NCBI GenBank assembly: GCA_945952225.1
Contig: CAMFHP010000008.1
Coordinates: 1,798-65,797 of the forward strand
Length of the DNA: 64,000 bases
Source: an uncultured Myxococcaceae bacterium
Lineage (GTDB): Bacteria > Myxococcota_A > Polyangia > Polyangiales > Ga0077539
Direction of reading: 5' to 3'
How positions within the stretch are numbered: position 1 is the first letter of the stretch; every line of letters begins with the position of its first letter. Below are positions 5,944 to 62,482 of the stretch, one piece after another. The position numbers and the translations under genes are program-made. Below the pieces are notes generated by a model. The model saw only the letters and a program-made list of their open reading frames with translations, had not been told where the DNA came from and did not search any database.

Positions 5944-6036
5944 CCCGCCGATTCTCGTCCGTACGTGCCCGCCGCGTCTGGTACGGTCCGCGCCGCCGTC
6001 GCGCCGGGGTGCCGACGTAGCCAAAGGGAGCGTTGG

Positions 6037-7986
6037 ATGGACAGCCTCATTCCTGTTGTGATCGCGGCGAGCGCGCTCGGCGTGCTCGTGCTCGGCATCA
6101 TGGCCCTGCTCGCACGGTTCTACCGACAGGTCGATCAGGGCAAGGCGCTGATCGTCAACACGCTGAAGGCCGAGCCCCTCGTGACCTTCACGGGCACCGT
6201 GGTCTACCCCATCGTGCATCGCGCCGAGGTGATGGACATCTCGGTGAAGACCATCATGATCGACCGCCGCGGCAAGGAGGGGTTGATCTGCAAGGACAAC
6301 ATCCGCGGCGACATCAAGGTCACGTTCTTCGTGCGGGTGAACAAGACCCAGGAGGACGTGCTCAAGGTCGCGCAGTCGATCGGGTGTGCGCGCGCGAGTG
6401 ATCCCGCGACGATCGAGGGGCTCTTCGAAGCGAAGTTCGCCGAGGCGCTCAAGACCGTGGGCAAGCGGCTCAACTTCGAAGACCTCTACAAGGAACGCGA
6501 CCACTTCAAGGACGCGATCATCGAGGTCATCGGCAAGGACCTGAACGGCTTCGTGATGGACGACTGCGCCATCGACTATCTGGAGCAGACGCCCGTCGAG
6601 TCGCTCGACAAGGACAACATCATGGACGCGGAGGGCATTCGGAAGATCACCGAGCTCACCGTGATCCAGAACGTGAAGACCAACGACCTGCGCCAGAAGG
6701 AGCGCATGGAGGTCGGGGCCCAGAACCTCTCGGCCGACGAGGCGCTCTTTCGCTTCGAGCAGAAGCGCTCCGAGGCCGAGGCGCGGAAGAACAAAGAGGT
6801 CGCCGTCGCGCAGGCCCGAGAGCAGAACGAGGCCGTGCGCGTCGCCAACGAGGAGCACAAGCGCACCGCCCTCGCGCAGGAGAAGAACGCCGAGGAGACC
6901 CTCGTGGCCCAGCAGGCCCGCGAGCGCGCCGTGCTCGTCGCCCAGAAGAACAAGGAGCGCGAGATCGCCGTGGAGCAGGAGCGCGTCGAGCGCGCCCGTC
7001 AGCTCGAAGCGGCCAACCGCGAGAACGACGTGACCGCGCTCAAGATCACCCGCGAGGCCGAGATCGAGCGTCAGCGCCGCGAGATCGCCGACGTGGTGCG
7101 CGCGCGCATCGTGGTCGAGAAGTCCGTGGCCGAAGAGGAGGAGCGCATCAAGGACGTGCGCGTCCTCGCCGATGCGAACCGTCAGAAGGACGCGAAGCGC
7201 ATCGCCGCCGAGGCCGACGCCGCGCAGAACCTCGTGAAGCAGGTGAAGGCCGCCGAGGCCGCGGAAGAGGTCGCGAAGTTTCAGGCGCGTCAGCAGCTCG
7301 TGGCCGCCGAGGCCGCGCTCGAAGCCGCGGAGAAGCAGAGCCGCGCGAAGGTGCGTCTCGCCGAGGGCGTGCAGGCCGAAGCCGCCGCCGCGGGCCTCGC
7401 CGACGTGCGGGTGCGCGAGGCCGCCGCCGCCGCGGTCGAGAAGCAGGGCCTCGTCGATGCGCGGGTGATGCTCGAGAAGATGCAGGCCGAGGCGCAGGGC
7501 GCCGAGCAGCAGGGCGTGGCGCGTGCGAAGGTGCGCGAGGCCGAGGCGCGCGCGCTGGAGCTGCAGGGCGCCGCCGAGGCGTCGGCGATTCGCGCGAAGA
7601 TGAGCGCCGAGGCCGCGGGCATCGCCGAGAAGGCCGAGTCGATGAAGGCCCTCGACGCCGTGAGCCGCGAGCACGAGGAGTTCCGCCTGCGACTGGAGCA
7701 GAGCAAGGTCATCGCGCTGGAGTCGATCCGCGCGAAGAAGGACGTGGCCGGCGTGCAGGCCGAGGTGCTCCGCGCGGCCTTCGAGCACGCGAAGATCAAC
7801 ATCGTGGGCGGCGACGGGCAGTTCTTCGAGCGCTTCATGCGCGCGGTGACGCTCGGTCAGTCCATCGACGGCGCCATCGACCAGAGCGACACATTGCGCT
7901 CGCTGCTCACGCAGATCGCCGAGACCGAGGCCGCGCCCGCCGAGACGGCCGAGACCGCGGAAACCTCCCCCCGCCGCGCGCGCTGA
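6037..7986 (+). CDS. flotillin / SPFH (band 7) family protein
   Basis: AAAGGGAG RBS before ATG 6037. N-terminal TM, an SPFH core ('QGKALIVNT...VVYPIVHRAEVMDISVKTIMIDRRGKEGLICKDNIRGDIKVTFFVRV') and a ~350-aa Ala/Glu/Arg/Lys coiled-coil flotillin tail. Confidence 0.9.
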   Translation: MDSLIPVVIAASALGVLVLGIMALLARFYRQVDQGKALIVNTLKAEPLVTFTGTVVYPIVHRAEVMDISVKTIMIDRRGKEGLICKDNIRGDIKVTFFVRVNKTQEDVLKVAQSIGCARASDPATIEGLFEAKFAEALKTVGKRLNFEDLYKERDHFKDAIIEVIGKDLNGFVMDDCAIDYLEQTPVESLDKDNIMDAEGIRKITELTVIQNVKTNDLRQKERMEVGAQNLSADEALFRFEQKRSEAEARKNKEVAVAQAREQNEAVRVANEEHKRTALAQEKNAEETLVAQQARERAVLVAQKNKEREIAVEQERVERARQLEAANRENDVTALKITREAEIERQRREIADVVRARIVVEKSVAEEEERIKDVRVLADANRQKDAKRIAAEADAAQNLVKQVKAAEAAEEVAKFQARQQLVAAEAALEAAEKQSRAKVRLAEGVQAEAAAAGLADVRVREAAAAAVEKQGLVDARVMLEKMQAEAQGAEQQGVARAKVREAEARALELQGAAEASAIRAKMSAEAAGIAEKAESMKALDAVSREHEEFRLRLEQSKVIALESIRAKKDVAGVQAEVLRAAFEHAKINIVGGDGQFFERFMRAVTLGQSIDGAIDQSDTLRSLLTQIAETEAAPAETAETAETSPRRAR

Positions 7987-8038
7987 ATCCCCGTCCTCTC
8001 CACGTCCATTCCCCCGCACCTGACCGGGAGCGAGAGCC

Positions 8039-19794: not shown

Positions 19795-21429
19795 ATGTTC
19801 GACTCGCTCACCAAGGGTTTCCGCGCCGCCCGCCAACGCCTCACCGGCATGGCGGAACTCTCCGAAGACGTCATCGACCAGGCGCTCCGCGATGTGCGGG
19901 TGTCGCTGCTCGAGGCCGACGTCGAGCTCGGGGTGGTCAAGCGCTTCCTCGCGCGCGTTCGCGAGAAGATGCTCGGTCGCGTGGTGCAGGTGCGCGCCGA
20001 GCACCAGGGCAAGAAGCTCAACATCGCGCCCGAGCAGATCTTCGTGAAGGCCTGCGAAGAAGAGCTCACGGCCATGATGGCCGACAACGACCCCGAGCCC
20101 CTGCGCGAGGCGCCGAAGGGCAACCCCACCGTGGTGATGATGGTGGGCCTCCAGGGGCAGGGAAAGACCACGACGAGCGCCAAGCTCGCGCGGCTCTACG
20201 CGAAGGAGGGCAAGAAGGTGCTCCTCGTCGCGGCGGACCTTCAGCGCCCCGCGGCCGTCGAGCAGCTCACGGTGCTGGGCAACAAGATCAACGTGCCGGT
20301 GTTCAGCGTGCCCGGCGCGACGCCCGTCGAGGTGTGCCGCCGCGCGGTCGCCGTGGCGCGCGTGCAGAAGAAGGACCTGGTCATCCTCGACACGGCCGGT
20401 CGCCTCGCGATCGACACGACGCTCATGGGCGAGCTGCAGGCCATCAAAGACGAGACGAAGCCGCAGAACATCCTGCTCGTGGTGAACGCGGCCATCGGGC
20501 AGAACGCCCTCGCGACGGCGCAGGCCTTTCACGAGACGCTGGGGCTCACGGGCGTGGCGCTCACGATGCTCGACGGCGATGCGCGCGGCGGCGCGGCGCT
20601 CTCGATCCGTGAGGTCACGGGCGTGCCGATCAAGTTCGCGGGCATGGGCGAGACCGTCGAGCAGCTCGAAGCGTTTCGCCCCGACGGCATGGCGTCGCGC
20701 ATCCTCGGGATGGGCGACATCATCGGCATCGTCAACGACTTCAACCGCGTCGTGACCGACACGAAGAAGGTCGAAGAAGACGCCCAGCGGATGCTCCAGG
20801 GCAACTTCACCTTCGACGACTTCGTGCAGCAGATCTCGATGATCCAGCAGATGGGTCCGCTGAAGGAGCTGTTCGAGAAGATGCCCTTCTTCTCCGAGAT
20901 GCTCCCGCAGGACGTGAACATCGACGACCGCGAGCTCGACCGCGTGAAGGCCATGATCGCGTCGATGACCGCGCAGGAGCGCCGCGACCCCGACGTCTTC
21001 AAGAACCAGCAGGGCCGCGTGCAGCGCGTGGCGAAGGGCTCGGGACGCAAGCCCGAAGACGTCGCCGAGCTCATCGCCAAGTTCATGATGATGCGCGAGA
21101 TGATGGGCGGCATCGGCAAGCAGGCGGGCTTCCTCTCGAAGCTCCCCGGCGCGAAGCAGCTCGCGATGGCGCGGCGCCTGCGCGAGATGGTGCGCGTGCA
21201 GGGCGAGAACGCGGCGATGTCGACGCTCATGCAGGAGATGCTCGAAGCGGCCGTGGCAGGCAACGGCGCACCGGGCGGTCCCGGCGGCATGGGCGACCCC
21301 ATGGGCTTCATGAACTCGCTGCTCGGGGGCGGCGGGGCGGGCGGCGCGAACCGCGGCGGTCAGCCCGGCATGCGCCAGCGCGACGTGCGTCGGCAGCAGC
21401 GCCTCGCGAAGAAGAAGACCCGGAAGTAA
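19795..21429 (+). CDS. ffh: signal recognition particle protein Ffh
   Basis: 'MFDSLTKGF', 'GLQGQGKTTT', 'DTAGRL', 'TMLDGDARGGAALS', a Met-rich M domain and a basic tail. Confidence 0.95.
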   Translation: MFDSLTKGFRAARQRLTGMAELSEDVIDQALRDVRVSLLEADVELGVVKRFLARVREKMLGRVVQVRAEHQGKKLNIAPEQIFVKACEEELTAMMADNDPEPLREAPKGNPTVVMMVGLQGQGKTTTSAKLARLYAKEGKKVLLVAADLQRPAAVEQLTVLGNKINVPVFSVPGATPVEVCRRAVAVARVQKKDLVILDTAGRLAIDTTLMGELQAIKDETKPQNILLVVNAAIGQNALATAQAFHETLGLTGVALTMLDGDARGGAALSIREVTGVPIKFAGMGETVEQLEAFRPDGMASRILGMGDIIGIVNDFNRVVTDTKKVEEDAQRMLQGNFTFDDFVQQISMIQQMGPLKELFEKMPFFSEMLPQDVNIDDRELDRVKAMIASMTAQERRDPDVFKNQQGRVQRVAKGSGRKPEDVAELIAKFMMMREMMGGIGKQAGFLSKLPGAKQLAMARRLREMVRVQGENAAMSTLMQEMLEAAVAGNGAPGGPGGMGDPMGFMNSLLGGGGAGGANRGGQPGMRQRDVRRQQRLAKKKTRK

Positions 21430-21498
21430 CGGCCGCCACGCGCGCCGAGAGACTCCACAAGAACCTTTACGTGTGAATGGTCATTCAGAGGGGATGAG

Positions 21499-22944
21499 AT
21501 GAAGAACGCAGCCCGATGGATCGTGTGCCTCGCGCTCGGTGCGGGGTGTGTCGAACAGCCCGCCGCGAACCGCGCCGGGGTGTCTTCGCAGGAGCTGGAG
21601 CAGGTGCGCCGTCGCGTGGCGCGCCGCACGGCCCCCACGCCGCAGCACCCGCTGAACATCAACTTCGGCGGCAACAAGGTGCAGCTCGTCGGCTACGACA
21701 TCAACGTGACCGAGCTGCGCCCCGGGCAGAGCGTGACGGTCACCTGGTGGTGGAAGTGCAACACCGCGCCGGGCGACGGCTGGCACCTCTTCACGCACCT
21801 CGACGACGCGAACCGTCCGCGTACGAACCAGGACAACGTGGGCGAGGTGCGCCGCGCGTATCAGCCCGATCGCTGGCGCGCGGGTGAGTACATCGCCGAC
21901 ACGCAGACCTTCGACCTCCCGGCGGACTGGGATTCCCCCGTCGTACGCTTTCACGTCGGCCTGTGGAAGGACGCGGACCGCATGACGCCGACCCCCGCGG
22001 AGATGACCGACGGCGACCGCCGCGCGCGGGTGCTGGAGCTCCGCACGGGCGTGCAGATCCAGGTGTCGGAGATCGCCGCGCCGCGCGCCACGGGTGCGAT
22101 CAACATCGACGGCCGCCTCGACGAGCCCGCGTGGCAGGCCTCGGCGCGCACCGGCGCCCTCGTGAGCACGATGTCGGGTGATCCCCCGTCGGGCACCGAC
22201 GCGCACGCGCTGGCCCGCATCCTCTGGGACGACACGAACCTCTACCTCGCCTTCGAAGTGCAGGACGAGAACCTCGTCGACCCGTCGCAGAACCGCGACG
22301 ACCACCTCTGGGAGCACGACGCGGTCGAAGTGATGATCGACCCCGACGGCGACGGACAGAACTACTTCGAGTTCCAGGTCTCGCCCCGTGGGACGCGCTT
22401 CGACACGCGCTACGACCGCGCGCGCCAGCCGTCGACGCCGACGCCGGGCCACATCGATTTCAACCCCGAGACGCGCGCCGCGGTGGTGCTCACCACGCCT
22501 GGCACCATCGGCAACCCCGACGACAACGACACGGGCTACACCGTGGAGTTCGCGATCCCGTGGGCGTCGATCTCGACGGGCCTCGCCCACAATCCTCCGC
22601 AGGTGGGCGACAACGTGCGCCTCAACCTCTTCGTGATGGACGAAGCCAAGCAGGGCGGCCACCGCTTCGCCGCGTGGAGCGCGCCGCGCTCGGGCGACTT
22701 TCACGCGCTGGAGCGCTTCGGTCGCGTGACGCTCGTGACGGCGATCCCCGATGCGCCCATGGCGCCCGGCGTGGTCGTTCCTCCGGCCCCCGGTGCGGCC
22801 GCGCAGGGTGCCGCCGCGCAGCCCGCGAACGCGCAGCCCGCGCAGCCCGAAGGCAACCGTCGCATGGCGATCCCCGCGGTGATCAACCCCGCGGTGCTCC
22901 GCGCGGCGCCTCGCGTGGGCGCTCCCTCGGGCATCGGTCACTGA
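21499..22944 (+). CDS. lipoprotein with CBM9/DOMON-like domain
   Basis: GAGGGGA RBS and lipobox 'LGAGC'. 'IDGRLDEPAW...LWDDTNLYLAFEVQD...DAVEVMIDPDGDGQNYFEFQVSP...YTVEFAIPW' matches the CBM9-like pattern. Confidence 0.75.
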   Translation: MKNAARWIVCLALGAGCVEQPAANRAGVSSQELEQVRRRVARRTAPTPQHPLNINFGGNKVQLVGYDINVTELRPGQSVTVTWWWKCNTAPGDGWHLFTHLDDANRPRTNQDNVGEVRRAYQPDRWRAGEYIADTQTFDLPADWDSPVVRFHVGLWKDADRMTPTPAEMTDGDRRARVLELRTGVQIQVSEIAAPRATGAINIDGRLDEPAWQASARTGALVSTMSGDPPSGTDAHALARILWDDTNLYLAFEVQDENLVDPSQNRDDHLWEHDAVEVMIDPDGDGQNYFEFQVSPRGTRFDTRYDRARQPSTPTPGHIDFNPETRAAVVLTTPGTIGNPDDNDTGYTVEFAIPWASISTGLAHNPPQVGDNVRLNLFVMDEAKQGGHRFAAWSAPRSGDFHALERFGRVTLVTAIPDAPMAPGVVVPPAPGAAAQGAAAQPANAQPAQPEGNRRMAIPAVINPAVLRAAPRVGAPSGIGH

Positions 22945-31905: not shown

Positions 31906-33651
<1,746 letters not shown>

Positions 33652-33682
33652 TCCGCTGATCTCGACCTGATACGAACGGCTT

Positions 33683-33715
33683 CGCGGCGCGGTGGCGATG
33701 AGCTCCCGCGCCGCG
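33683..33715. terminator. perfect 10-bp GC hairpin between convergent rpsA and the VIT-vWA gene
   Basis: CGCGGCGCGG (33683-33692), a 13-nt loop, then CCGCGCCGCG (33706-33715), followed by TCGTCATTT. The loop is large and the T-run short, so the call is tentative. Confidence 0.35.
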
Positions 33716-33770
33716 TCGTCATTTGGGGGATCGACGCGGCGTGGGTGCGGTGTGTTGCGCGGGGGTGCGC

Positions 33771-36700
33771 TCAGCGGCGCGCGGCCGTGCGGACCGCGGC
33801 GGGATCGGGGGTGACAGGCTCGTCGACGAGGGCGCCGTCGGTCACGCGAAGCCCGCGGGCGCGGTGCTCGCGATCGAGACGAACCGTGCGCTCCACGAGG
33901 CGCGTGCGAAGGCCCTGCGGAACGAGGAGCTGCACGCGCACGTCGACCGCGCGGCGGTGTTCGAGGCCCGCCGTGGCGCGCACCACGAGGTGCTGACCGA
34001 CGAGCGCGGTGTCGGGTGTCCACACGCGCGCGCCGAGCGATGCGGGCGCGTCGCCGACGACGGTGGGCGCGGTGTCGGCGTCGGTGCGTGCGAGGAGCTC
34101 CAGCGCGAGATCGGGGTGCGTCCATCGCACGATCACGCGGCCCTCACGGGCGTTGCGAAGGCGCGCGGCCACGCGGAGCCACGCGCGCACGGCGGGATCG
34201 TCGGGGCGCAGGGCCACCACGCGGGCCACCTCGGCGTCGAGGATCGCCTGCGCCACGGGGCCCATCGCGTCGCTCCCCGACGCCTCCGATGCGCGACGGA
34301 GCAGACGGAGGCCTTCGTCTTCGCGTCCCGCGGCCAGCGCGCAGAGTGCCACGCGCACGAGCGGGAGCGCGTCGCCGGGGCTCAACATCGCGAGCGTCTG
34401 CGCGTGGTGGTAGGCCTCCGCGGGCCATCCCCAGGTGAGCAGAAGGTCGGAGAGCCGCGCGCGGGCGAAGGGATCGTAGGGCGCGAACTCGGCGACCTCG
34501 GTGAACGCGCGCAACGCCTCGTCGCGGTCGTTGGCGCGCAGGAGGAGCTCGGCCACGCGGCTCCGCACGCGCGCGTCGGCGACGGGGTCGTGGCGCAGTC
34601 GCTCGCCCACCGCGCGTGCCTCGGGGAGCGAGCCTGCGTCTTCGAGGGCGTCCATGAGACGGAGGCGGAGGTCGACGTCGTCGGGCACCGCGACGAGCCA
34701 CGCGCGCAACAGGGCGATGCGCTGCGCAGGCGTGAGCGTCGGCGCGGCGAGGCGCGTGAGGAGCGCATCCCAGTCGAGCGACACAGGCCGTGCGCCGCGC
34801 GCGCGCCACACCCACGTGGGACCGAAGCGTCGCGCGATGGCGCCGTCGAGCCACATCACCGACGCGCGGTCGGAGAGGCCGTTGCGAAGCGCCACCACGT
34901 CGTCGGGATTCGTGAGTGCCACGAGGAGCACGTCGAGCAGCGCGCGACGGTCGTCCCACGTGCGCAGCTCGCAGCGTGCGACCGCGGTGTTCCACACGTC
35001 GAGGGCGGTCGAGGCCGATGGGCCGCGCACACGCAGACGCTCGCGCCACAGCGTACGGAGCACGTCGCGTGAGAGGCCCGCGGTGGGCGCGCACACGCGC
35101 GTCGCGGGTCCCGTCGCGATGGGGAGCGACCACGTGAACGCGCGCACGTAGCGTCCCGGCGAGGCGCCGAAGAGCGCGGGCTCGGGCACGCGCACGCCCG
35201 ACACCGCGCGGCGCACACACTCGGCGGCCTCGACGTCGTTGAGGGTCGAGTACGCGAGCGTCGCCGCCGTGACCTGGCCCGTCGCGTCGATGTCGGCCGC
35301 GATGCCCACGGTGCCCGCGATCGCAGGGCGAAGTGCGCGACGTCGCGTGATGCACACCTCGGCTGCGGGACCTGCCACGGAGAGCGCCTCGACGAGCGCC
35401 GCCGCGCCGCCCACGCCGCGCCCCTCGCCCTCGCCGTGCACCTGCCAGCCGCGTCCGTCGTCGAAGGCCACGGGAACCTCGCGGGCGTCGCGCTCGGTGC
35501 GAAGCACACCGCGCGGAGCGAGGTCCGACGACACACCGAGCGACGGGAGACGCGCGCCGTCGTCCTCGGCGGGCCAGAGGCTCGCGCGCACGGTGAGTCC
35601 CTGCGCCGCGACCGTCGGATCGACGGCGGCCACCACGAGGCCCGACACCGGCGTGATCACACCGAAGCGCGCGCCGAGGTCTGCGATGGAGCCGCGTCCG
35701 GCGCCCCCTCGCGTGAGCGCGTCGATGCGCGCGGAGGCCCAGCGCCGTGCGAGGTCGCCGTGGTCGACCACGTCGCGGAGTTCGAGCGGGAGCGTCCACG
35801 CGCGCGCGGTGAGCCCGTCACGGGCGCGCACGGTGAGCTGCGTGGGGGCGCGTCCGGGGAGCTCGGCGAGGAGGTGCAGCGCATCGCCCGCGACCCACAC
35901 CGTGCGGCGCGTGGGCATCGGGTGCGTGAGCAGCGGGCCCGCATCGACGCGAAGGTCGCGAAGACACGGACGGAGCGCGTGGGCCACGATGCGTTCCGCG
36001 GCGTGCACGGCGTCGTCGGCGTCGTCGACACGCAGTGCGAGGCCGCCGTCTTCGGTGAGCGGCGCGAGCACCTCGGGGTGCGCCGCGGCGCCGAGCGTGA
36101 CGGTGTAGAGCCGCAGGTCGGGCGCCTGCCGCGTGGCCTCGTCGACGAGACGCGCAGGGTCGAGTGCGCCCACGGTGGGCGTGCCATCGCCGAGGTACAC
36201 CACCGCGCCGTTGCGCGACGGATCGAGGGCCGCGTGCGCGTCGACGAGCATGCGCGCGAGGTCGGTCGCGCCCCCCGAGCGGGCACGGGCCACGGCGTCG
36301 AGCATCGACTCGCGACGGGCGTCGTCGACGGCGGCGAGCGTGCCCAGCGAAGGCCCTGCGGGGCGCGCGCCGAGGTCGCCGACAAAGAGGGCCGCGCGGT
36401 CGTCGGGACCGAGCTGCCGGAGCATCGCGTCGATGGACGCGCGGGCCAGTTCGAGCGATGCGGGGTCGGTCGCAGCCGAGGTGTCGAGCACGAGCGCGAG
36501 GTCGGTTCCACGTGCGATGGGCGTTGGAAGCGCGACGTCGACGAGGAGGTGGCGCGTGCCATCGGGCTGCGCGGCGACGCTGCGCCACGCGCGGGCCGCG
36601 GGGATCGTGCGAGGCCTCGCGTCGTCGAGGGTGACCACGAGCGCGCCGCGCGGGCGCCAGTCGCTGCGGCGCATGCGAACGTGCTGGTCGGCGTCGAGGC

Positions 36701-50397: not shown

Positions 50398-52251
50398 TCA
50401 GTGCGCGTGGGGCTCGCTGCGATCGCCGGGCTCGGCGGGCGCCATCGCGGCGAACCACGCGCGAGGCCCGAGTCGCACGAGGCTTCGCACGAGCACGGCC
50501 GCGAGAAACGCCGCGCAGGCGAGCTCCCACCACGCGTGCGTGTGGGCCACGAGGTGGTGCATCTCGGGCACCGCACTTCGGGGCACGAGCGCGTTCACGG
50601 CCACCCCCAGCAGCACCGACGCCGTGAGGCTCGCGAACGCATAGGCGAGCGCCGCGCGGTTGCCGAGCGCGCGACGGATCGCGGCGATCACCGGGAGGTT
50701 CGTTCCTGGCGCCACGAGCACGAACGCGAGCGCAGCGCCCACGGAGGCGCCCTTGTGCACGAGCATCGCCGCGAAGGGCGTCGCCCCCTGCGCGCACATG
50801 TACAGCGGAACGCCCGCGAGCGCGGCGACCACCACGTCGAGCGGCGCGCCGAGCGAGGCGATGCGCGCGGGGTCGATCGCGGCTTCGAAGGCCGCGGCGA
50901 GACAGAGACCCACCACGTACCAGGCCGCCACGTGGTCGAGGGTCGGGCCCACCGCGCGGCGCAGCGCGTAGCGCACGCGACCGGCGTGGTCCGCGGGCGG
51001 AAGCTCATCGGCGGGCGTGTCGCGCCATCGCAGCACGGGGCGCATGAGGGCCTTCGCGGGCGCCGCGCGGAGTGACACGCGCATGGTCACGTTGCGCGCG
51101 CTCCACGCGACGACGAGGGCCACGACGACGGCCACCGCGAGGCCCGACGCGATGCGCGCCACCGCGAGCGGAGCGCCCAGCAGTCGGAACGAGAACACGG
51201 CGCCGCCCACGTCGACGGCGGGCGTTCCTGCGGCGAAGGCGGCGACGGCGGCGACGGGCACACCCGCCGCGAGGAGGCTGCGCACGAGCGGGAGCACGCC
51301 GCACGAACACTGCGGCAGCGGCACACCGAAGACCACACCGCGGAGGGCCTGCGAGAGCGACGCGCCGCCGCTCAGCCATCCCGCCACACGCCGCGGAACC
51401 CACGTCTGCACCGCGCTCGCCGCGAGGAGCCCCACGAGCATCGACGGCGCGGTCTCGACGAAGAGCGGCCCCAGCGACTCGACGAACGACAGCTCGTGCG
51501 GCCGCGCGTGGCGCAGCACGCTGTCGGGGTCGGGGATCCACGTCGCGAGGCCCACTCCCCCGAGAAAGGCCGCGGCCGAGAGGGCCTTCGTGCCCGCCGT
51601 GGGTGACACCCTTCCGTGGCGATGCGTGGCGAGTCGCAACATCGCGCCGATGCCGAAGGCCGCCACCGCGTCGAACACCGCGTCGGGAATGCGCGCGAGC
51701 AACGCGCTGCCGAGGAGCGCGCCCACCACCGTCGCCGACGCCACGAGCGCGAGCCGCGGAATCGCGCGACGCCACCCCATCGCGGGCACGAGCGCCGTCG
51801 CGAGAAAGAGCCCCTCGGGCAGTCGATGAAGCACCAGCGCGACGCCGAGGCCCGCGCTCACCGACCCGTGGTGCTCGCCCGCGGCCGTGGCCATCGCGAG
51901 CCCCGCCCCATCACCGAGCGCGTGCACCACGAGGGCCGGGAGCACCACCGCCGCGCCGAGGCGGTCGTCGTCGTGGTGCGCGCGACGGTCGGCGAACCAC
52001 AGCACGCCGTAGCCCAGCGCGACGAGCGCGAGCCCCGCGGCGCCCACCTCGTCGACCACGTGGGGCACGAGGTGGAGCAGCAGGAGGGCGGGCACCACGC
52101 CCAGCGTGAAGCCGTCGATGAACGACGACGGCGCGCGGCGGCCGCGTCCCCACGCGACGAGGAGCGGTCCCACCGCGAACCCCATCAGCGACAGGAGGAG
52201 CACCGGCCCGAGCACGGCGGCGGTTCTGCCCTCGCGTGCGCGAATTCGCAA
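50398..52251 (-). CDS. fusion membrane transporter: ZIP-like N-terminal half and DUF318/ArsP-type permease C-terminal half
   Basis: ZIP-like 'HALGDGAGLAMA' and 'HRLPEGLFLA'. Permease half has 'PLPQCSCGVLPLV' and 'GVPLYMCAQGATPFAAMLVHKGASVGAALAFVLVAPGTNLPV'. The ORF-track start is TTG, so the start is uncertain. Confidence 0.8.
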   Translation of the reverse strand: MRIRAREGRTAAVLGPVLLLSLMGFAVGPLLVAWGRGRRAPSSFIDGFTLGVVPALLLLHLVPHVVDEVGAAGLALVALGYGVLWFADRRAHHDDDRLGAAVVLPALVVHALGDGAGLAMATAAGEHHGSVSAGLGVALVLHRLPEGLFLATALVPAMGWRRAIPRLALVASATVVGALLGSALLARIPDAVFDAVAAFGIGAMLRLATHRHGRVSPTAGTKALSAAAFLGGVGLATWIPDPDSVLRHARPHELSFVESLGPLFVETAPSMLVGLLAASAVQTWVPRRVAGWLSGGASLSQALRGVVFGVPLPQCSCGVLPLVRSLLAAGVPVAAVAAFAAGTPAVDVGGAVFSFRLLGAPLAVARIASGLAVAVVVALVVAWSARNVTMRVSLRAAPAKALMRPVLRWRDTPADELPPADHAGRVRYALRRAVGPTLDHVAAWYVVGLCLAAAFEAAIDPARIASLGAPLDVVVAALAGVPLYMCAQGATPFAAMLVHKGASVGAALAFVLVAPGTNLPVIAAIRRALGNRAALAYAFASLTASVLLGVAVNALVPRSAVPEMHHLVAHTHAWWELACAAFLAAVLVRSLVRLGPRAWFAAMAPAEPGDRSEPHAH

Positions 52252-52296
52252 CAGAGATACGTCTACGAAATCGCCCGACGCGCGCGGCGGTGGCGC

Positions 52297-52743
52297 TCAG
52301 GCGCAGCGGTCGCAGCGGCCCTTGAGCTGGATCTCGACCTCGCGGCCCTTCAGCGAACGCGGCGCGCCGCGCGTCGAGTGGAGCTCGACGATCTCGTCGG
52401 GGAGGCACTGCACGTCGCCGCACTCGTCGCAGACGAAGTGGGGATGGCGCTTCTCTTCGTGCGAGCGCACGTCGTCGGCGCGGAGTTCGAAGCGCCACAC
52501 GTGATCGCCCACGTCGGTGCGCCGCAGGAGCCCGGCCTCCGTGAGGTCGGTGAGGTTGCGGTAGATCGTCGCGCGATCCCACTGGGGCGCGAGCGCTTCG
52601 GCGAGCTCGCCGTGCGTCACCGGCGACGTGGCCGCCGAGAGGCGCTGGAGCACCGCCACGCGCGGCGACGTCACGCGGAGGCCCGACGCGCGGATCTTCT
52701 CGCGGAGCTCATCGAGCGAAGGCGTCGTTCGCGGTCGCACCAT
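52297..52743 (-). CDS. Fur family transcriptional regulator (Zur-like)
   Basis: 'GLRVTSPRVAVLQ', 'ATIYRNLTDLTEAGLL', 'HPHFVCDECG...C' and a C-terminal 'GRCDRC' structural Zn site. Confidence 0.9.
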   Translation of the reverse strand: MVRPRTTPSLDELREKIRASGLRVTSPRVAVLQRLSAATSPVTHGELAEALAPQWDRATIYRNLTDLTEAGLLRRTDVGDHVWRFELRADDVRSHEEKRHPHFVCDECGDVQCLPDEIVELHSTRGAPRSLKGREVEIQLKGRCDRCA

Positions 52744-55335: not shown

Positions 55336-55509
55336 CGCAGGGCGCGCGACTCTACACGCCGCGGCCCGCAGCGCCCACACCCCGACCGCGCAGGGCACCG
55401 CAGCGCGTCACCGTCGACGGGAGGCGACATGCGCGGAACACCGTCCACACAAGGGATTTTCGCGCAAATGCGTCGTGACCGTCGCGCGAGGTGCGTTACC
55501 GTCGCGGCC

Positions 55510-57285
55510 ATGCGAACCGCGATGCGACTCGTCTCTCTGGTCACCCTCGCCTCGTGCGCTGCGATGTCGTGCAGCGACGGCGGCACGTCTCCGACGCCGA
55601 CGCCTTCGCAAGACGGCGGCGTGTGCACGCCCGACCGCGCGCAGTGGAACAGCACCGTGCGCGGCCTCGTCGCGCAGCAGTGCGGCGGGTGCCACGGCGA
55701 CACGCCCTCGTACGGCGCGCCCTACTCGCTGCTCGACTACGACGCGCTCCTTCGCGCGCGCACCGGCGGACGCCCCGTCGATCGCATCGCGGCGCGCATG
55801 ATGGCCGGCACCATGCCCCCGTCGGGCACGCCCGCGCCCACCGACGACGTGGCCCGCGCGATCGTGCAGTGGGCCACCTGCGGCGCGCAGACGCCGTCCG
55901 CGGGTCACGGCCTCCGCGCGACGCGCCCGGTGTTCCGCTCGCCCCCCACCGCGCCCTCGGGCATGGAGACCTGGGACCTCACCGCGCCGCAGTGGAGCGT
56001 CGGCCCCGACGTGCTCGACCGCTACCAGTGTTTCACCTTCGAGTTCCCCGGCACGACCGACCGCTTCGTGCGGCGCTTCGAACTCGTCGCCGACCAGCGC
56101 GCGGTGCTGCACCACGTGGTGCTCCTCCGCGACAACAACCGCGTGGCCCCGACGACGCCGTTCGAGTGCGGGAGCATGCCCGAGGGCAGCGACTACCTCT
56201 ACGCCTGGGCGCCCGGTCAGGACGCGCTCCAGTTCCCCGAGGGCGGGCTTCGCATCACGCCGGGGCAGCGCCTCGTGATGCAGATCCATTACAACAACGG
56301 ACAGCACCTCCCGAACCTCCGCGACAGCTCGGGCCTGCGCCTCTACCACACGGCGCCGAGCGGCACGGAGTACGGCATGGTCGCGCTCGGTCCGCTCGCC
56401 TTCCAGATCCCCGCGCGCTCCACGGGTCAGACGGCGAGCGCGTGCACCGTCACCCGCGAGTCGCGGATGCTCGCGGGCATGCCGCACATGCACCAGTTCG
56501 GCTCGACCTTCACCGAAGAGATCGTGCGCGCCGACAACTCGCGCGAGTCGCTCATCGGCATCCAGGGATGGCAGTTCGCGTCGCAGCTCTTCTACGACTT
56601 CAGCACCCCGCTCCACCCCGGCGACCGCATCGAGACGCAGTGCGTGTTCGACAACACCACCACGTCGACGGTGCGCAGCGGCGGACGCACGAGCGACGAG
56701 ATGTGCTTCAACTTCGCGTACATCACGCCGCCCCCGTCGGAGCGCTACTGCGACCAGCCCGTGGGCTCGCCCGAGACGGTGCCGTACACCCCGGGCATGT
56801 GCGCGATCCCCGCGGCGCCCACGGACATCGCCACGGTGTCGGGCCGCGCGATGGTCGCTGCCGCGCCCGCCCTCGCCGGCGGCACGCTGCGCGACGGACG
56901 CTGGGAGCTCCAGGGCGTCACCTGGTATCTGAACTCGGGCATGGTGGGCACGAGCACCACGATCAACCTCGACGAGACCTCGCTCCACGCGCGCGGCCAG
57001 GTGTGGATCAACGGCACGCAGATCAACGCCGACCTCGTGACCCGTCTCAACCTCACGCTCGTCGGCGGCGCGCGCCTCTCGCGCGACCTGCCCACCACCT
57101 TCGCGGGCGCCCTCGCGAGCGGCACCACCTCGCCGCTGCGCCTCACGGCCTCGTGCCCGAGCTCTGGCGCGCCGCAGACCCTCGACTACGCCGTCGACGG
57201 CGACACGCTCACCGTGGGACCGCCCGCGCAGAACTACTCGGGGCTCATGGTCACGCCGCGCTACCAGTTCCGCTTCGTGCGCTGA
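55510..57285 (+). CDS. lipoprotein: heme-c (CxxCH) domain fused to a PHM/DBH-like type II copper monooxygenase and a C-terminal beta domain
   Basis: Lipobox 'LASC'. 'QCGGCHG' (55681-55695). 'VLHHVVLL' (aa 201-202), 'MQIHYNN' (H260), 'PHMHQFG' (H326/H328) and 'SDEMCFNF' (M398). The spacing (+58, +66, +70) is close to the PHM Cu ligands H107/108, H172, H242/244, M314. An alternative start lies at 55468. Confidence 0.8.
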   Translation: MRTAMRLVSLVTLASCAAMSCSDGGTSPTPTPSQDGGVCTPDRAQWNSTVRGLVAQQCGGCHGDTPSYGAPYSLLDYDALLRARTGGRPVDRIAARMMAGTMPPSGTPAPTDDVARAIVQWATCGAQTPSAGHGLRATRPVFRSPPTAPSGMETWDLTAPQWSVGPDVLDRYQCFTFEFPGTTDRFVRRFELVADQRAVLHHVVLLRDNNRVAPTTPFECGSMPEGSDYLYAWAPGQDALQFPEGGLRITPGQRLVMQIHYNNGQHLPNLRDSSGLRLYHTAPSGTEYGMVALGPLAFQIPARSTGQTASACTVTRESRMLAGMPHMHQFGSTFTEEIVRADNSRESLIGIQGWQFASQLFYDFSTPLHPGDRIETQCVFDNTTTSTVRSGGRTSDEMCFNFAYITPPPSERYCDQPVGSPETVPYTPGMCAIPAAPTDIATVSGRAMVAAAPALAGGTLRDGRWELQGVTWYLNSGMVGTSTTINLDETSLHARGQVWINGTQINADLVTRLNLTLVGGARLSRDLPTTFAGALASGTTSPLRLTASCPSSGAPQTLDYAVDGDTLTVGPPAQNYSGLMVTPRYQFRFVR

Positions 57286-57325
57286 GCGCCGCCCCACGCC
57301 GCGCTCGCGCATCGAACGCCTGCGC

Positions 57326-58945
57326 ATGAAGAAGCTCGTCTCGCTCTGCACCCTCAACAGCCTCCCCGACCGACGCGCGCAGCTCGTGAAGGGCCCCGAC
57401 GGACGCCGCTACGCGTGCGTGCGCCGCGGGTCGCGCGTCGACCTCCTCGACGATCGCTGCCCGCATGAGGGCCATCCGCTCTCGATGGGGCTCGTGCGCG
57501 ACGGCGTGCTCACCTGTCAGTGGCACAACTGGAAGTTCTCCCTCGACGACGGCGCGTGCCTCCGCGGCGGCGAGCACGTGGCCCGCTACGACGCGGAGGT
57601 GCACGACGGCGAGGTGTTCTTCGATCCGCGCCTCGACGACGACGACCGACGGGCGCGCATCCGTCACGACCTCGAACGCGCCCTCGAACGTGCGCAGGCC
57701 GACGGCGCCACGCGCGAGGCGCTCCGTCTGCTGCCCTTTGAGGGCGGGCTCGACGAGGCCGTCGACGCGATGGTGCGCCACGCGATGGACCGCGACGGAT
57801 GCGCCATCGCAGGCCACGCGCGCGCCGCGCTCTCGCTCCGCGACGCGGGTGTGCTCGACGACGCGGACGCCCTCGCCGTGCTCGCATCTGCGGCCGTGCG
57901 CGAAGGCGGATTGCGCGCGGTAGCGCCCTCCCCTGTGGCGCCCTCCCCCGCGACGCGCGCTGCGACCCTCGACGACGGCGAGGCCGTGCTCCTGGCGCTC
58001 CTCGATGAGCGCGTCGACGAGGCCGAGTCGTACGCGCGCGGAGTGCCGCCTTCCCACGCGATGCGCGCCCTCGACGCGTGGCTCATGCCCTGGGCCGCCC
58101 TCAAGCTCTGGAACGGCGGCGCCACCCTCGCCGCACTCGCCGACACGCGCGCCGTCGCGGCGCACCTCACCGACGGCACGCGCACGGCCTCGCTCGCGGC
58201 GCTCACCCGCGGCCTCGGCGTGGCGGTGGCCGAGAGCGACCTCCCGCCGTGGCGACACACGCGCAAGGCGCTGCTCGAAGCGCGCGTGATCCAACCGGGA
58301 ACCGCGGCCCTCGACGACGCCGAGGCCCTCGCGCGCGACGCGCTCACCTCCGAGGGGCAGGGGCTCCATGCGACGCTCATCGCGCTCGACGCGGGCGCGT
58401 CTCCCGCCGCGGTGCTCACCGTGCTCGCGCGCACCGCCGCCGAACGCGCCGCCACCTGGAACGTCGCCCACTCGCGCGACGATCACCGCGACGTGCGCGC
58501 CCTCGACGCGACGCGCGCGCTGCGCTTCTGCCGCGCGGCGCAGACCCTCGCGGGAGCGGTTCCCGGTACGCACTCCGTCGCCCACGCGGTGCTCGCCGCG
58601 GGCCTCGTGGGCAAGCTCCGACGGCACACCCACGTCGCCGAAACACCCGCCCGCGCGCACGGCGCCGACACCCTCGCCGACGCCCTCGCACGCCGCGACG
58701 GTGCGGCCCTCCGCGCGCTCGTGAACGACGGCGCGTCGCTCGCCGCGCTGACCCGCGCCGCAGCCCTCGACGGCGACGGATCGCACGCCCCCTTCGCCGC
58801 CGACTGCCACGCGATGGTGCGCGACGGAACGCTCACGGTCTCCGCGGCCCGCGACGCGATGGTGCGCGCGGTGTTCGAAGAGCCCCCGGCCTCGCTCGCA
58901 CGCCTCGCGGCGAGGGCGAAGCGCGCGGTCGAACGCACGCGTTGA
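57326..58945 (+). CDS. Rieske [2Fe-2S] domain protein with 430-aa helical C-terminal region of unknown function
   Basis: 'CPHEGHPL' followed 16 residues later by 'CQWHNWKF' (CxH...CxxH). It starts 40 nt downstream of the copper monooxygenase gene. Confidence 0.8.
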   Translation: MKKLVSLCTLNSLPDRRAQLVKGPDGRRYACVRRGSRVDLLDDRCPHEGHPLSMGLVRDGVLTCQWHNWKFSLDDGACLRGGEHVARYDAEVHDGEVFFDPRLDDDDRRARIRHDLERALERAQADGATREALRLLPFEGGLDEAVDAMVRHAMDRDGCAIAGHARAALSLRDAGVLDDADALAVLASAAVREGGLRAVAPSPVAPSPATRAATLDDGEAVLLALLDERVDEAESYARGVPPSHAMRALDAWLMPWAALKLWNGGATLAALADTRAVAAHLTDGTRTASLAALTRGLGVAVAESDLPPWRHTRKALLEARVIQPGTAALDDAEALARDALTSEGQGLHATLIALDAGASPAAVLTVLARTAAERAATWNVAHSRDDHRDVRALDATRALRFCRAAQTLAGAVPGTHSVAHAVLAAGLVGKLRRHTHVAETPARAHGADTLADALARRDGAALRALVNDGASLAALTRAAALDGDGSHAPFAADCHAMVRDGTLTVSAARDAMVRAVFEEPPASLARLAARAKRAVERTR

Positions 58946-59578: not shown

Positions 59579-59688
59579 GGTGACGGTCTCTCTCGTAGCG
59601 CCGCGCGCACGGTGCCGCGGCGGGTGCGGGCGTATAGCGTGATGTTCCCCCTCCACGCGAGGGGCGCGTTGTGGGTAGTGTCGCGGCC

Positions 59689-60642
59689 ATGAAGGCGTCA
59701 ACCCTCACGCTCGACCGCGGCGGCGAGCGGATCTTCGTGTACGCGTGGCTCCCCGACGGCGACGCCCCGGTGCGCGGCGTGGTGCAGGTGAGCCACGGCA
59801 TGGCCGAACACGCGGCGCGCTACGAGCCCCTCGCGGAGTCGCTCGTCGCGCAGGGCTTCGCGGTGTACGCCCACGACCACCGCGGCCACGGACGCACCGC
59901 GGGAGACCCTTCGCGCCGCGGACATTTCGCCGACCGTGACGGATGGCGCGCCGTCGTCGACGACCTCTACGCCGTGGGCGACCACGCGCGCGCGCAGCAC
60001 CCCGGCGCACCGCACGTTCTCTTCGCCCACAGCATGGGCGCGTTCATGGGGCAGCAGGCCCTCTACGAGCGCGGCGGTGACTACGCCGCCGTGGTGCTCT
60101 CGGGCTCGACGAGTCCGGTGAGCAATCCGCTCGCGCCCATCGGACGCGTCGTCGCGCGGGCCGAGCGCTGGCGCCTCGGACCGAAGTCGGCGAGCGCGCT
60201 GCTCACGAAGCTCTCGTTCGGCGAGTTCAACCGCGCGTTCAAGCCCGCGCGCACCGAGTACGACTGGCTGAGCCGCGACGCCGCCCAGGTCGATCGCTAC
60301 ATCGCCGACCCGTGGTGCGGCTTCGACATGACGACGCAGTCGTGGGTCGACCTGCTCGACGCGCTGCCCGTGATCGCGGCGCCCGAGAACGTCGCGCGCA
60401 TCCCGAAGGATGTGCCCGTGTACATCCTCGCGGGCTCGATGGACCCGGTGTCGGGCGCCGTGAAGGGCCTGCGCCAGCTCGTCGACGCGTGGAGCGCCGC
60501 GGGCCTGCGCGACCTCACGTGGAAGGTCTACGAGCAGGGCCGCCACGAGATGCTCAACGAAATCAACCGCGCCGAGGTGCTCGACGACCTCCGACGCTGG
60601 CTCGAACGAACCGTCCCCGCGAAGAAGGGAGATCCGTCATGA
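59689..60642 (+). CDS. alpha/beta hydrolase (lysophospholipase / monoacylglycerol-lipase-like)
   Basis: 'VVQVSHGMAEHAARY', 'AHDHRGHGRT', nucleophile 'FAHSMGA', and 'GSMDPV...GRHEMLNE'. Confidence 0.85.
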   Translation: MKASTLTLDRGGERIFVYAWLPDGDAPVRGVVQVSHGMAEHAARYEPLAESLVAQGFAVYAHDHRGHGRTAGDPSRRGHFADRDGWRAVVDDLYAVGDHARAQHPGAPHVLFAHSMGAFMGQQALYERGGDYAAVVLSGSTSPVSNPLAPIGRVVARAERWRLGPKSASALLTKLSFGEFNRAFKPARTEYDWLSRDAAQVDRYIADPWCGFDMTTQSWVDLLDALPVIAAPENVARIPKDVPVYILAGSMDPVSGAVKGLRQLVDAWSAAGLRDLTWKVYEQGRHEMLNEINRAEVLDDLRRWLERTVPAKKGDPS

Positions 60643-60854
60643 AGCAGGCGACCCTCACCATCACCGGCATGCACTGCGGCGGCTGCGTGGCCTCCGTCGA
60701 CCGCGTGCTCGCGAAGCTGCCCGGCGTGGGCGAGCGCAAGATCACCGTCGGGTCCGCGACGCTCACCGTCGACGAGACGCAGGTGGGCGAGGCGCAGCTC
60801 CGCGACGCCATCGACGGCGCGGGCTTCGACGTGACCGACGTCGCGTGGTCGTGA
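60639..60854 (+). CDS. heavy-metal-associated (HMA) domain protein, CopZ-like
   Basis: 'ITGMHCGGCVASV' (MxCxxC), 71 aa. The ATG overlaps the upstream TGA (ATGA). Confidence 0.85.
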   Translation: MKQATLTITGMHCGGCVASVDRVLAKLPGVGERKITVGSATLTVDETQVGEAQLRDAIDGAGFDVTDVAWS

Positions 60855-61312
60855 GCACCGCCCCCGCCGAGGCGCGCAAGGCCCTGCAGACCAGCGTCGT
60901 GCGGATGCGCGTGCACTACGCCGAGGTCGACCGCATGGGCTTCCTCCACCACAGCAACCACCTGCGCTGGTTCGAACGCGGCCGCGAGGAGTTCTGCCGC
61001 CGCCGCGCCGCGGCCTATCGCGAGATGGAAGACGCGGGCGTGCTCGTCGTCGTGGTCGACCTCGACGTGCAGTACAAGTCTCCGCTGCGCTACGAAGACG
61101 TCGTCGACCTCCACGTGCGCCTCACCGACGTGCGCCACGCCTCGCTCACCTGGGAGTACGAGATGCGCCGCGTGGGCGACGACGCGCTCGCCGCGACGGG
61201 CCGCACGCGCCACGCGTTCGTGACCCGCGAGGGGCGCATCACCCGCGTCGACGCGCGCGTCGCGGGGCTCCTCACCGGCGACGAGACCGAGACCCGCCTC
61301 GGCGAGATCTGA
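60845..61312 (+). CDS. acyl-CoA thioesterase (4HBT / YbgC-like)
   Basis: 'VHYAEVDRMGFLHHSNHLRWFERGREEF', and hot-dog fold spacing. The GTG start overlaps the end of the HMA gene by 10 nt. Confidence 0.8.
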   Translation: MVVSTAPAEARKALQTSVVRMRVHYAEVDRMGFLHHSNHLRWFERGREEFCRRRAAAYREMEDAGVLVVVVDLDVQYKSPLRYEDVVDLHVRLTDVRHASLTWEYEMRRVGDDALAATGRTRHAFVTREGRITRVDARVAGLLTGDETETRLGEI

Positions 61313-61321
61313 TCCGCGCGC

Positions 61322-62482
61322 TCAGCGCCCCTCGCACACGCCGCCGTCGACCGCGCTCCATCGCACCGCGGGATGGCGTCGCACGATCGTCGCCTGCTGC
61401 CGCGAGAGCCCCCGCGCCATGGCCTCCGTGGGCCGCGCGTTCATGAGGTTCGAGGCGTCGGTGTCGTCGAGGACGTCCGCGCGTCCGTCGGCTTCGACCG
61501 AATGGTAGAGCCCGAGGTAGTGCCCGAGCTCGTGGGCCATCACGCGCACCGCGTGGGGCGGCGCTTCGGTGCCCGGCGGAATCGCAAAGCACCCGTCGCT
61601 CAACACCACCCCGTCGGCCACCGACGACGTCGCCCCTCCCCCGGGAACGTGCGTCGTGAAGCCCTCCGGCGACGTGGTCTCGCCGAGCGTCGCGTTGCGC
61701 ACCGTGAGGCATCGCACGCCCCACACGGTGATCCGCGGCGCCGACGCTTCGAAGCCCCTGCACGCGCTGGCCGCACGGGCCGTGAGGTCTGCGAGCGTGG
61801 CCCCCTCGCCCGCCTGCACGGTCACCTCGTCGGCCACCGACGGAGGAAGCACACACCGCGCGACTACACGCACGCGCAACGCGGCGTCGGCGAGCTCGGC
61901 GGACACGTCGCGTTCGAAGCGCCGCAACGACGCGTCATCGGCCCGCGCGAGCCAGCTCGATGGCGTGGCGATCACCGCGAGGTCGAGCGCGCCCGTCGCA
62001 CCGGGGGTCGCATCGTCGAGGGCCACCCGCGCGACCGTCGCGCGCACCCCCGAAGGGAGCGGCCGCAACGACGCGCCCGTCGCACAGTCACGAAGCGCGA
62101 GCGTCACGCGCGAAGGCCCGAGCCGCGACGCATCGGAGGGGATCGCGAACCACCCCGCGCCCTGCATCACGCTCACGCGCTGGAAGCACCGGACGCACGT
62201 GGGCCCGAAGTCTCCGGGCGTGACGAGCGCGGTGCCGTCGTCGAGGGTGAGCGCGTCGACCTGCACGCAGCGCGAAGGGTCCGAGAGCGTGACCGCGAGG
62301 AGGTGGGCGCCGGCGGGGAGTGCGAAGGGTCCCGCGCGTCCGTCGTCGCCGAACACCGACGCGCCGACGGGCACCAGGGGCGTCATCGCGCGGCACGTCA
62401 CGACATCGGGAATCGCCGTGTACGAAGGCGTTTCACACGACGCGAGGGCGACGAGCGCGAGCGCGAGCGGGCACCGGGCCAT
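61322..62482 (-). CDS. lipoprotein zinc metalloprotease (metzincin-type HExxHxxGxxH)
   Basis: Lipobox 'LASC'. 'VMAHELGHYLGLYHS' lies near the C-terminus and is followed by 'NLMN'. Confidence 0.75.
   Translation of the reverse strand: MARCPLALALVALASCETPSYTAIPDVVTCRAMTPLVPVGASVFGDDGRAGPFALPAGAHLLAVTLSDPSRCVQVDALTLDDGTALVTPGDFGPTCVRCFQRVSVMQGAGWFAIPSDASRLGPSRVTLALRDCATGASLRPLPSGVRATVARVALDDATPGATGALDLAVIATPSSWLARADDASLRRFERDVSAELADAALRVRVVARCVLPPSVADEVTVQAGEGATLADLTARAASACRGFEASAPRITVWGVRCLTVRNATLGETTSPEGFTTHVPGGGATSSVADGVVLSDGCFAIPPGTEAPPHAVRVMAHELGHYLGLYHSVEADGRADVLDDTDASNLMNARPTEAMARGLSRQQATIVRRHPAVRWSAVDGGVCEGR

Follow-up and report, generated by a model that had tools for sequence, protein, structure and literature searches.

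A putative cytochrome c-fused PHM/DBH-type copper monooxygenase encoded by an uncultured myxobacterium

The DNA considered here is a stretch of 64,000 nucleotides, referred to below as the window, which covers positions 1,798 to 65,797 of the forward strand of contig CAMFHP010000008.1 (assembly GCA_945952225.1) from an uncultured Myxococcaceae bacterium that GTDB places in the Polyangiales. Our main subjects are two adjacent genes on its forward strand. Gene A encodes a predicted lipoprotein of 591 amino acids (aa) in which a putative class I cytochrome c domain precedes a two-copper core of the kind found in peptidylglycine alpha-hydroxylating monooxygenase (PHM) and dopamine beta-hydroxylase (DBH). 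Gene B, which follows it, encodes a Rieske-domain protein of 539 aa. In animals the PHM/DBH-type core makes amidated neuropeptides and noradrenaline, and the eukaryotic enzymes receive their electrons from ascorbate. An initial annotation, made from the sequence alone, had described gene A as heme c fused to a PHM/DBH-like copper core, a description with which Pfam, the PDB comparisons, the structural model and the invariance of the metal ligands now agree. It had also suggested that the cytochrome, and possibly the Rieske protein, replace ascorbate as electron donor, and these two parts of the proposal met with different fates, as set out below.

The features of gene A, with the evidence for each in brackets, are as follows:

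55510..57285, forward strand: gene A, stop codon included, for a 591-aa lipoprotein in which a predicted cytochrome c domain is followed by a PHM-like two-copper core and then by a C-terminal beta domain (open reading frame and translation, Pfam, phmmer against PDB, model, Foldseek)
55510..55572, forward strand: predicted signal peptide and lipobox, LASC16, with C21 in the column of the family's LAGC cysteine (sequence, alignment of 40 homologues)
55618..55914, forward strand: putative mono-heme class I cytochrome c domain, aa 37-135 (profile against PDB, sub-threshold Pfam Cytochrome_CBB3 match, model helices)
55681..55695, forward strand: heme-c attachment motif C58-G-G-C61-H62 (C58, C61 and H62 invariant in 40/40 homologues)
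55813..55821, forward strand: M102-P-P, with the probable distal Met heme ligand (invariant in 40/40 homologues and in two-domain relatives)
55972..56307, forward strand: PHM N-terminal (CuH) beta-sandwich, aa 155-266, with H201, H202 and H260 (Pfam PF01082, alignment to PHM)
56401..56763, forward strand: PHM C-terminal (CuM) beta-sandwich, aa 298-418, with H326, H328 and M398 (Pfam PF03712, alignment to PHM)
56803..57282, forward strand: all-beta C-terminal domain, aa 432-591, confined to the three-domain subfamily (roughly ten long antiparallel strands, modelled with high confidence, pLDDT)

Translation from 55510 to 57282 yields the 591 aa, and the stop codon occupies 57283-57285. The protein begins with MRTAMRLVSLVTLASC, a signal peptide closing in the lipobox L-A-S-C16, and a second cysteine, C21, aligns with the cysteine of an LAGC lipobox in 38 of the 40 homologues (41-67% identity) on which conservation in A was judged throughout, where it is preceded by L-A-G or a similar sequence. 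Residues 1-36 are disordered in the AlphaFold model. From these sequence properties, protein A is predicted to be an exported lipoprotein that faces the periplasm. The public gene call for an identical stretch (ENA contig ERZ12289976, NODE_1173) starts at 55429 and gives a protein of 618 aa, with further ATG start candidates at 55468 and 55510; the choice between them alters only the length of the signal-peptide n-region, and the mature protein is identical in all cases. No NCBIfam naming model matches A.

Both halves of the copper core score above their Pfam cut-offs in the search that the initial annotation had recommended, Cu2_monooxygen (PF01082) with 36.2 bits (cut-off 30, E=8e-9) and Cu2_monoox_C (PF03712) with 45.3 bits (cut-off 23, E=8e-12). 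In a phmmer comparison with all PDB chains, rat PHM was retrieved with an E value of 3.3e-14 and human DBH with one of 4.5e-13. In the alignment to PHM, residues H201, H202 and H260 of A coincide with the CuH ligands H107, H108 and H172, and residues H326, H328 and M398 with the CuM ligands H242, H244 and M314. Given that the Pfam scores exceed their cut-offs and that the PHM match aligns all six ligands, the resemblance extends far beyond chance. These same residues, which stand in LHHVVLL, IHYNN, PHMHQFG and DEMCFNF in the translation, had been picked out earlier, and every assigned position proved exact; the spacing between ligands, said then to be near that of PHM, is 58/66/70 in A and 64/70/70 in PHM. 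All six ligands are invariant in 40/40 homologues, and so are Y172 and Q258, which correspond to Y79 and Q170 of PHM.

The AlphaFold model of A, built on the 40-sequence alignment, has a mean predicted local distance difference test (pLDDT) value of 88 and a predicted template modelling score (pTM) of 0.75. It also overlays on PHM as had been envisaged, with a template modelling (TM) score of 0.75. In Foldseek it matched about thirty PHM structures with E values down to 5e-17, TM scores of 0.70-0.76 relative to PHM and a root mean square deviation (rmsd) of about 3 Å over approximately 290 columns, and it matched DBH at E=4.5e-15. The assignment of a PHM/DBH-type two-copper monooxygenase core to gene A is thus well supported by sequence and model, and from it we infer copper loading and activity.

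Some insight into the substrate comes from residues of the CuM domain. In rat PHM, R240, N316 and Y318 hold the carboxylate of the substrate's C-terminal glycine and its backbone. The phmmer alignment places M324, F400 and F402 of A at these positions, and the replacements are well conserved in the family, with Met at the first in 34/40 homologues and Phe at the second and third in 39/40 and 40/40, respectively. A glycine-extended peptide is an unlikely substrate because the carboxylate-binding triad has been replaced by Met/Phe/Phe, and the peptide C-terminus that had been listed among the possible substrates of A loses its appeal. The sequence suggests instead that the substrate is probably hydrophobic.

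These replacements bear directly on the proposal that A is a true bacterial PHM, which would amidate secreted peptides with a cytochrome as donor. PHM structures are indeed the closest solved relatives of A, and the copper ligands are retained together with the equivalents of Y79 and Q170, but the match to DBH is about as good as that to PHM. We fetched 80 loci that contain A homologues, together with flanks of up to 10 kb on either side (67 of these loci have at least 2 kb downstream), and clustered the flanking open reading frames (ORFs) all against all; neither a PAL-like lyase nor a precursor-peptide gene was conserved among the flanking genes of these loci. A therefore belongs to the PHM/DBH superfamily but lacks the residues of a peptidylglycine hydroxylase, and on sequence grounds it is unlikely to be a peptide-amidating enzyme; we consider amidation with a cytochrome donor quite improbable.

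The same clustering revealed no flanking family present in more than 11 of the 80 loci, and those shared families that could be identified (deoxynucleoside kinase, GidB, protein kinase and similar) are of a housekeeping nature. Since no flanking family exceeds 11/80 loci, the neighbourhood offers no operon-level clue to the substrate of A.

The N-terminal domain of A carries the CGGCH sequence noticed earlier at aa 58-62, which the translation gives as C58-G-G-C61-H62. When a profile of the domain was compared with PDB, class I cytochromes c were retrieved, headed by the actinobacterial bc1 subunit QcrC (E=1.6e-4) and followed by c-552, c6 and c-553. The alignments span the region from CxxCH to the Met-Pro segment of the solved cytochromes, where M102 of A aligns, about 40 residues past its CxxCH. 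Cytochrome_CBB3 was matched by 18/18 domain sequences tested, seven of which also match PSCyt1. In the model the domain contains four helices, at residues 43-62, 77-81, 89-99 and 112-122. In view of the profile match, the invariance of CxxCH and MPP, the four-helix model and export as a lipoprotein, it is a reasonable reading that the domain holds a single His/Met-ligated heme c, presumably attached at CxxCH and likely to have M102 as its sixth ligand.

The domain also carries two extra invariant cysteines, C39 and C124. These, and the fact that the Pfam cytochrome score of A itself lies under the curated cut-off, could be taken to mean that CxxCH binds no heme, that the N-terminal domain acts as a module for structure, thiol-disulfide chemistry or metal binding, and that the copper core depends on a diffusible reductant. 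Such a module would leave several properties unexplained: CxxCH is followed some 40 residues on by Met-Pro-Pro, both of them invariant; the alignment of the profile with solved class I cytochromes covers both the heme motif and the Met region; relatives with repeated copies of the domain pass the Pfam threshold; and the protein is exported to the compartment in which heme attachment takes place. A heme-free domain is, in our estimate, very improbable.

The fusion is not peculiar to this genome. A word-indexed search yielded 299 homologues of A, nearly all of about 590 aa and from Myxococcota, with the database names 'hypothetical' or 'cytochrome c5'; the cultivable relative Sandaracinus amylolyticus has a homologue too (DB32_008257). 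The closest relatives of the window are metagenome-assembled Polyangiales and other Myxococcota. The cluster names of ten relatives are 'hypothetical' or blank. When 1.84 billion representatives were searched exhaustively with a profile, 852 clusters (50% identity) were obtained at E<=1e-30. Domain architectures were counted in the best 150 of the 852 clusters, from which 114 representatives were kept that had at least 400 aa and the CuM motif. CxxCH occurs upstream of the copper core in 108/114 of them, the remainder comprising gene calls truncated at the N-terminus and a single eukaryotic protein of the DOMON-DBH type. Judging by these sequences, the fusion of cytochrome to copper core is essentially obligate in this bacterial clade, and the heme domain was never found free-standing within it, always being fused upstream of the copper core.

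Variation within the clade is informative with regard to function. The three-domain form seen in A was found in 34 representatives and the C-terminal domain is absent from 73. Five representatives (P0238, P0252, P0262, P0278 and P0323) carry two to four tandem heme domains ahead of the copper core, with CxxCH motifs spaced by about 93 aa and Cytochrome_CBB3 scores of 34-71 bits, above the cut-off. A heme string of variable length which always lies on the CuH side fits an electron-input wire, and this is the main argument that heme replaces ascorbate; the sequences therefore favour the heme domain as the point of electron entry.

Many genomes carry two or three paralogues of A on different contigs. 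In addition, six lipoproteins of 466-563 aa (P0244, P0245, P0280, P0300, P0305 and P0309) match the PHM domains, and some of them also match the C-terminal beta domain, while the CxxCH, HxH and (D/E)EM motifs are all missing. From their sequences they look like metal-free degenerate paralogues.

The C-terminal beta domain, which is missing from relatives of about 420-480 aa, gave no match in Pfam and none in a PDB sequence search with a 15-sequence profile. Its strand lengths and a first strand with the pattern G-x-W-x-L suggest that it may form a lipocalin-like barrel.

Taken together, these results point to the following scheme. A would be exported by Sec, after which heme c would be attached in the periplasm. 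The heme domain would accept single electrons from periplasmic respiratory carriers, for example soluble cytochromes c or the bc1 complex, and pass them one at a time to CuH in place of ascorbate, with CuH relaying them to CuM. There, O2 would be bound and a C-H bond of a bound hydrophobic substrate hydroxylated, by analogy with PHM and DBH, and the barrel-like C-terminal domain may help to bind or deliver the substrate. Ascorbate is unlikely to be supplied to a periplasmic bacterial enzyme. The electron supply had been described initially as 'self-contained', which is an overstatement, given that the heme domain still needs a periplasmic reductant upstream.

The scheme assumes that A hydroxylates a substrate. 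The coppers might instead connect cytochrome c with a small oxidant or reductant and move electrons between the two, in which case A would reduce O2, nitrite or peroxide in the periplasm, or would act as a dehydrogenase that releases its electrons by way of the heme. There are precedents for parts of this idea: copper nitrite reductases fused to cytochromes exist, and the titles of PDB entries record the binding of nitrite, azide and CO by the coppers of PHM. The lack of a conserved substrate-pathway neighbour in the A loci is also consistent with it. However, the full PHM/DBH catalytic set is invariant in the family, including the CuM Met and the equivalents of Y79 and Q170, and is typical of O2-activating hydroxylases, while the peptide-binding residues have not been lost but replaced by a conserved hydrophobic pocket (F400, F402). 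To our knowledge, no enzyme of the PHM/DBH fold has such a reductase or dehydrogenase role. We regard a role of this kind as unlikely, if less so than the other alternatives discussed here.

Gene B lies 40 nt downstream of A on the same strand, as had been described, and its features are:

57326..58945, forward strand: gene B, for a 539-aa protein, predicted to be cytoplasmic, that combines a Rieske domain with an all-alpha one (translation, Pfam, model, Foldseek)
57326..57631, forward strand: Rieske [2Fe-2S] ferredoxin-like domain, aa 1-102, with C45, H47, C64 and H67 (Pfam, Foldseek)
57638..58942, forward strand: all-alpha domain, aa 105-539 (model with pLDDT 93 and pTM 0.91)

The Rieske motif reads C45-P-H47, then 16 residues, then C64-Q-W-H67, and its four ligands are invariant in 30 homologues. 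The Pfam Rieske model scores 39.8 bits (cut-off 20.3), and Foldseek aligns this part of B with T4moC, CarAc and the naphthalene dioxygenase ferredoxin at TM scores of 0.8-0.89 and rmsd values of 1.6-2.1 Å. The helical remainder, which the initial annotation had estimated at about 430 aa and could not recognise, is a 435-aa all-alpha domain with no match in Pfam; all 50 of the 50 PDB matches listed by Foldseek cover the Rieske part alone. This domain, an orphan family by itself, invariably follows a Rieske ferredoxin-like domain at the N-terminus of the same protein; more than 571 B-related loci occur in metagenomes, and they lack conserved neighbours. Arg, Pro and Gly predominate among the invariant residues of the all-alpha domain (R130, R134, P255, G265, P307 and R374), and no metal site is evident in it for that reason.

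The possibility that B delivers electrons to the heme domain and thence to the copper sites, as a dedicated three-component system, is suggested by the arrangement of the two genes, with no terminator-like site in the short gap between them, and by the intact Rieske centre of B, with its invariant ligands and ferredoxin-like fold. In the 80 A loci, tblastn gave no match to B even at E<0.05, and hidden Markov models (HMMs) of the B Rieske and helical domains gave 0 hits. In the reverse direction we examined 81 loci of B relatives, 78 of which encode true Rieske-plus-helical proteins and 36 of which extend at least 2 kb upstream, and the A profile gave 0 hits in the 81. A B homologue of 46% identity has unrelated neighbours and no Cu2_monoox gene close by, and B as a family shows no conserved neighbours in these loci, neither an oxygenase nor a reductase partner being conserved nearby.

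The initial annotation had made the partnership depend on synteny of the Rieske gene in relatives, and in the loci examined the gene is not syntenic: neither B nor any Rieske gene occurs in the 80 A loci, within up to 10 kb, and A occurs in none of the 81 B loci. Localisation points the same way. Residues 5-9 of B form strand 1 of the Rieske fold in the model and no Sec or Tat signal was found; B lacks a signal peptide since its N-terminus is itself the first strand of the fold. On the basis of sequence and models, A and B are thus predicted to occupy different compartments, A being exported and B cytoplasmic. Each, moreover, belongs to a large stand-alone family. B was accordingly rejected as a Rieske partner of A, on the strength of tblastn and HMM searches without hits in both directions and of the missing export signal, and a dedicated chain from B through heme to copper has only the faintest probability. 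B is an unrelated neighbour of A, adjacent to it in this genome only among the loci examined, and establishing this keeps a wrong three-component model out of annotation.

The suggestion that ascorbate is replaced has therefore fared differently for its two candidate donors. That of the cytochrome gains from the obligate fusion and from the variants with two to four hemes, whereas that of the Rieske protein suffers from the missing synteny and the missing signal peptide of B.

Several points weigh against the interpretation of A as a heme-fed monooxygenase independent of B. The Cytochrome_CBB3 score of A is 20.3-23.7 bits, under the gathering cut-off of 27. The direction of electron flow is assumed, being carried over from PHM chemistry by analogy, and the call for a hydrophobic substrate rests on three residue replacements. 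Moreover, A and B lie on one strand with a 40-nt gap in which no terminator was detected, which leaves room for co-transcription in this organism and for a link specific to the lineage. With these points taken into account, we assign a probability of about 0.62 to the reading in which A is a periplasmic protein that combines heme c with a PHM/DBH-type copper monooxygenase, in which the heme would feed CuH in place of ascorbate, and in which B has no part. A wider formulation, in which A would represent the first ascorbate-independent branch of PHM/DBH enzymes, a large group of mainly myxobacterial periplasmic lipoproteins with one to four fused hemes linking CuH to the respiratory chain and hydroxylating a hydrophobic substrate of the envelope, stands in our judgement slightly above even odds.

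In the window, A is surrounded by genes for alpha/beta hydrolases and small membrane proteins, by a copper-chaperone-like gene of the HMA type, and by genes for a thioesterase and an M43-like protease. None of these travels with A in the 80 A loci, in which ten window neighbours besides B were sought by tblastn. Three genes at 59671-61312 on the forward strand have overlapping ends and place a metal chaperone between two hydrolases, an unusual operon which the A homologues do not conserve:

59671-60642, forward strand: Hydrolase_4/lysophospholipase-like alpha/beta hydrolase
60639-60854, forward strand: HMA copper-chaperone-like protein of 71 aa with the motif MHCGGC
60845-61312, forward strand: 4HBT thioesterase

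Immediately beyond, at 61322-62482 on the reverse strand, a predicted lipoprotein of 386 aa shows weak, sub-threshold matches to Peptidase_M43, M10 and reprolysin-like families at HELGHxxG, around residues 312-349. At 50398-52743, also on the reverse strand, the gene for an ArsP_1-type permease of 617 aa (50398-52251) is directly preceded by that for a Fur-family regulator (52297-52743). The ArsP_1 Pfam domain corresponds to no more than residues 263-553 of the permease, which has an additional membrane region at its N-terminus, containing stretches rich in His and Asp, and the two genes may constitute a metal-uptake or metal-efflux pair.

The G+C content of the window is 72-76%. Three 2-kb bins (6001-8000, 20001-22000 and 32001-34000) are lower in G+C, at 0.67-0.68 compared with about 0.73, and the AT skew is strongly positive, at 0.18-0.24, in bins 6001-8000 and 20001-22000. 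No rRNA, tRNA or Rfam family was detected in the whole window, and a scan for promoters and terminators found nothing.

PHM and DBH are textbook copper enzymes, and the route by which electrons reach, and pass between, their two distant coppers is debated. Open and closed conformers of enzymes of this type were discussed in a 2025 review (PMC12164859). We found neither a description nor a characterisation of a bacterial cytochrome c-fused PHM/DBH homologue in the literature searched, nor any characterised bacterial PHM/DBH homologue there. Maintenance of the fusion across hundreds of clusters would imply that PHM/DBH chemistry can be powered from the respiratory chain. If this is true, the built-in one-electron donor, being visible spectroscopically, would render the disputed transfer from CuH to CuM directly measurable and make A a self-reporting model enzyme. 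Unusual lipids and natural products abound in myxobacteria, and A points to a hydroxylation reaction in the myxobacterial envelope.

Among solved enzymes, PHM, the catalytic core of PAM (PDB 1PHM, 1OPM, 1SDW and 3MLJ), shares with A the fold of two beta-sandwiches and the His3 and His2Met sites predicted for CuH and CuM, respectively, at about 24% identity. A differs in its putative N-terminal heme-c domain, predicted lipid anchor and C-terminal beta domain, in being bacterial and, by prediction, periplasmic, in the replacement of the carboxylate-binding residues by M/F/F and in having no PAL lyase partner. DBH, tyramine beta-monooxygenase and MOXD1 (PDB 4ZEL) have the same catalytic core. DBH resembles A further in possessing one extra domain before the CuH domain and another after the CuM domain, and the substrate of A is, as in DBH, probably no peptide carboxylate. 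The preceding domain is a DOMON domain in DBH, whereas in A it is a putative class I cytochrome c, and the C-terminal domain of A has no detectable similarity to anything solved in the PDB sequence search. DBH occurs in secretory vesicles, in soluble or membrane-bound form, and uses ascorbate.

The two electron-transfer modules at the locus likewise have familiar counterparts. Class I cytochromes c (Cytochrome_CBB3 and PSCyt1; QcrC, c-552 and c6) share with the A domain a CxxCH near the end of helix 1, an M-P(-P) segment, four helices and a length of about 100 aa, whereas the A domain scores below the Pfam cut-off, adds C39 and C124, and is always fused. The first 100 residues of B show the fold and the CxH...CxxH pattern of Rieske-type ferredoxins (T4moC, CarAc, BphA3 and NirD), from which B differs by its 435-aa all-alpha domain and by the lack of a conserved oxygenase or reductase partner nearby.

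A heme domain linked or dedicated to a mononuclear copper, which lets single electrons in with no need of a small diffusible reductant, is also known from other enzymes. Cytochrome c-tethered copper nitrite reductases exist, for example in Ralstonia pickettii, and the cytochrome domain of cellobiose dehydrogenase reduces the copper of lytic polysaccharide monooxygenases (LPMOs). The arrangement proposed for A would resemble theirs by analogy and not by homology, since the tethered nitrite reductases (cupredoxin) and the LPMOs (immunoglobulin-like) have other folds and catalyse other reactions. Judged by sequence, what appears to be new in A is the fusion of heme c to the PHM/DBH core, its parts being known already, as is the tethering of cytochromes to copper enzymes of other folds.

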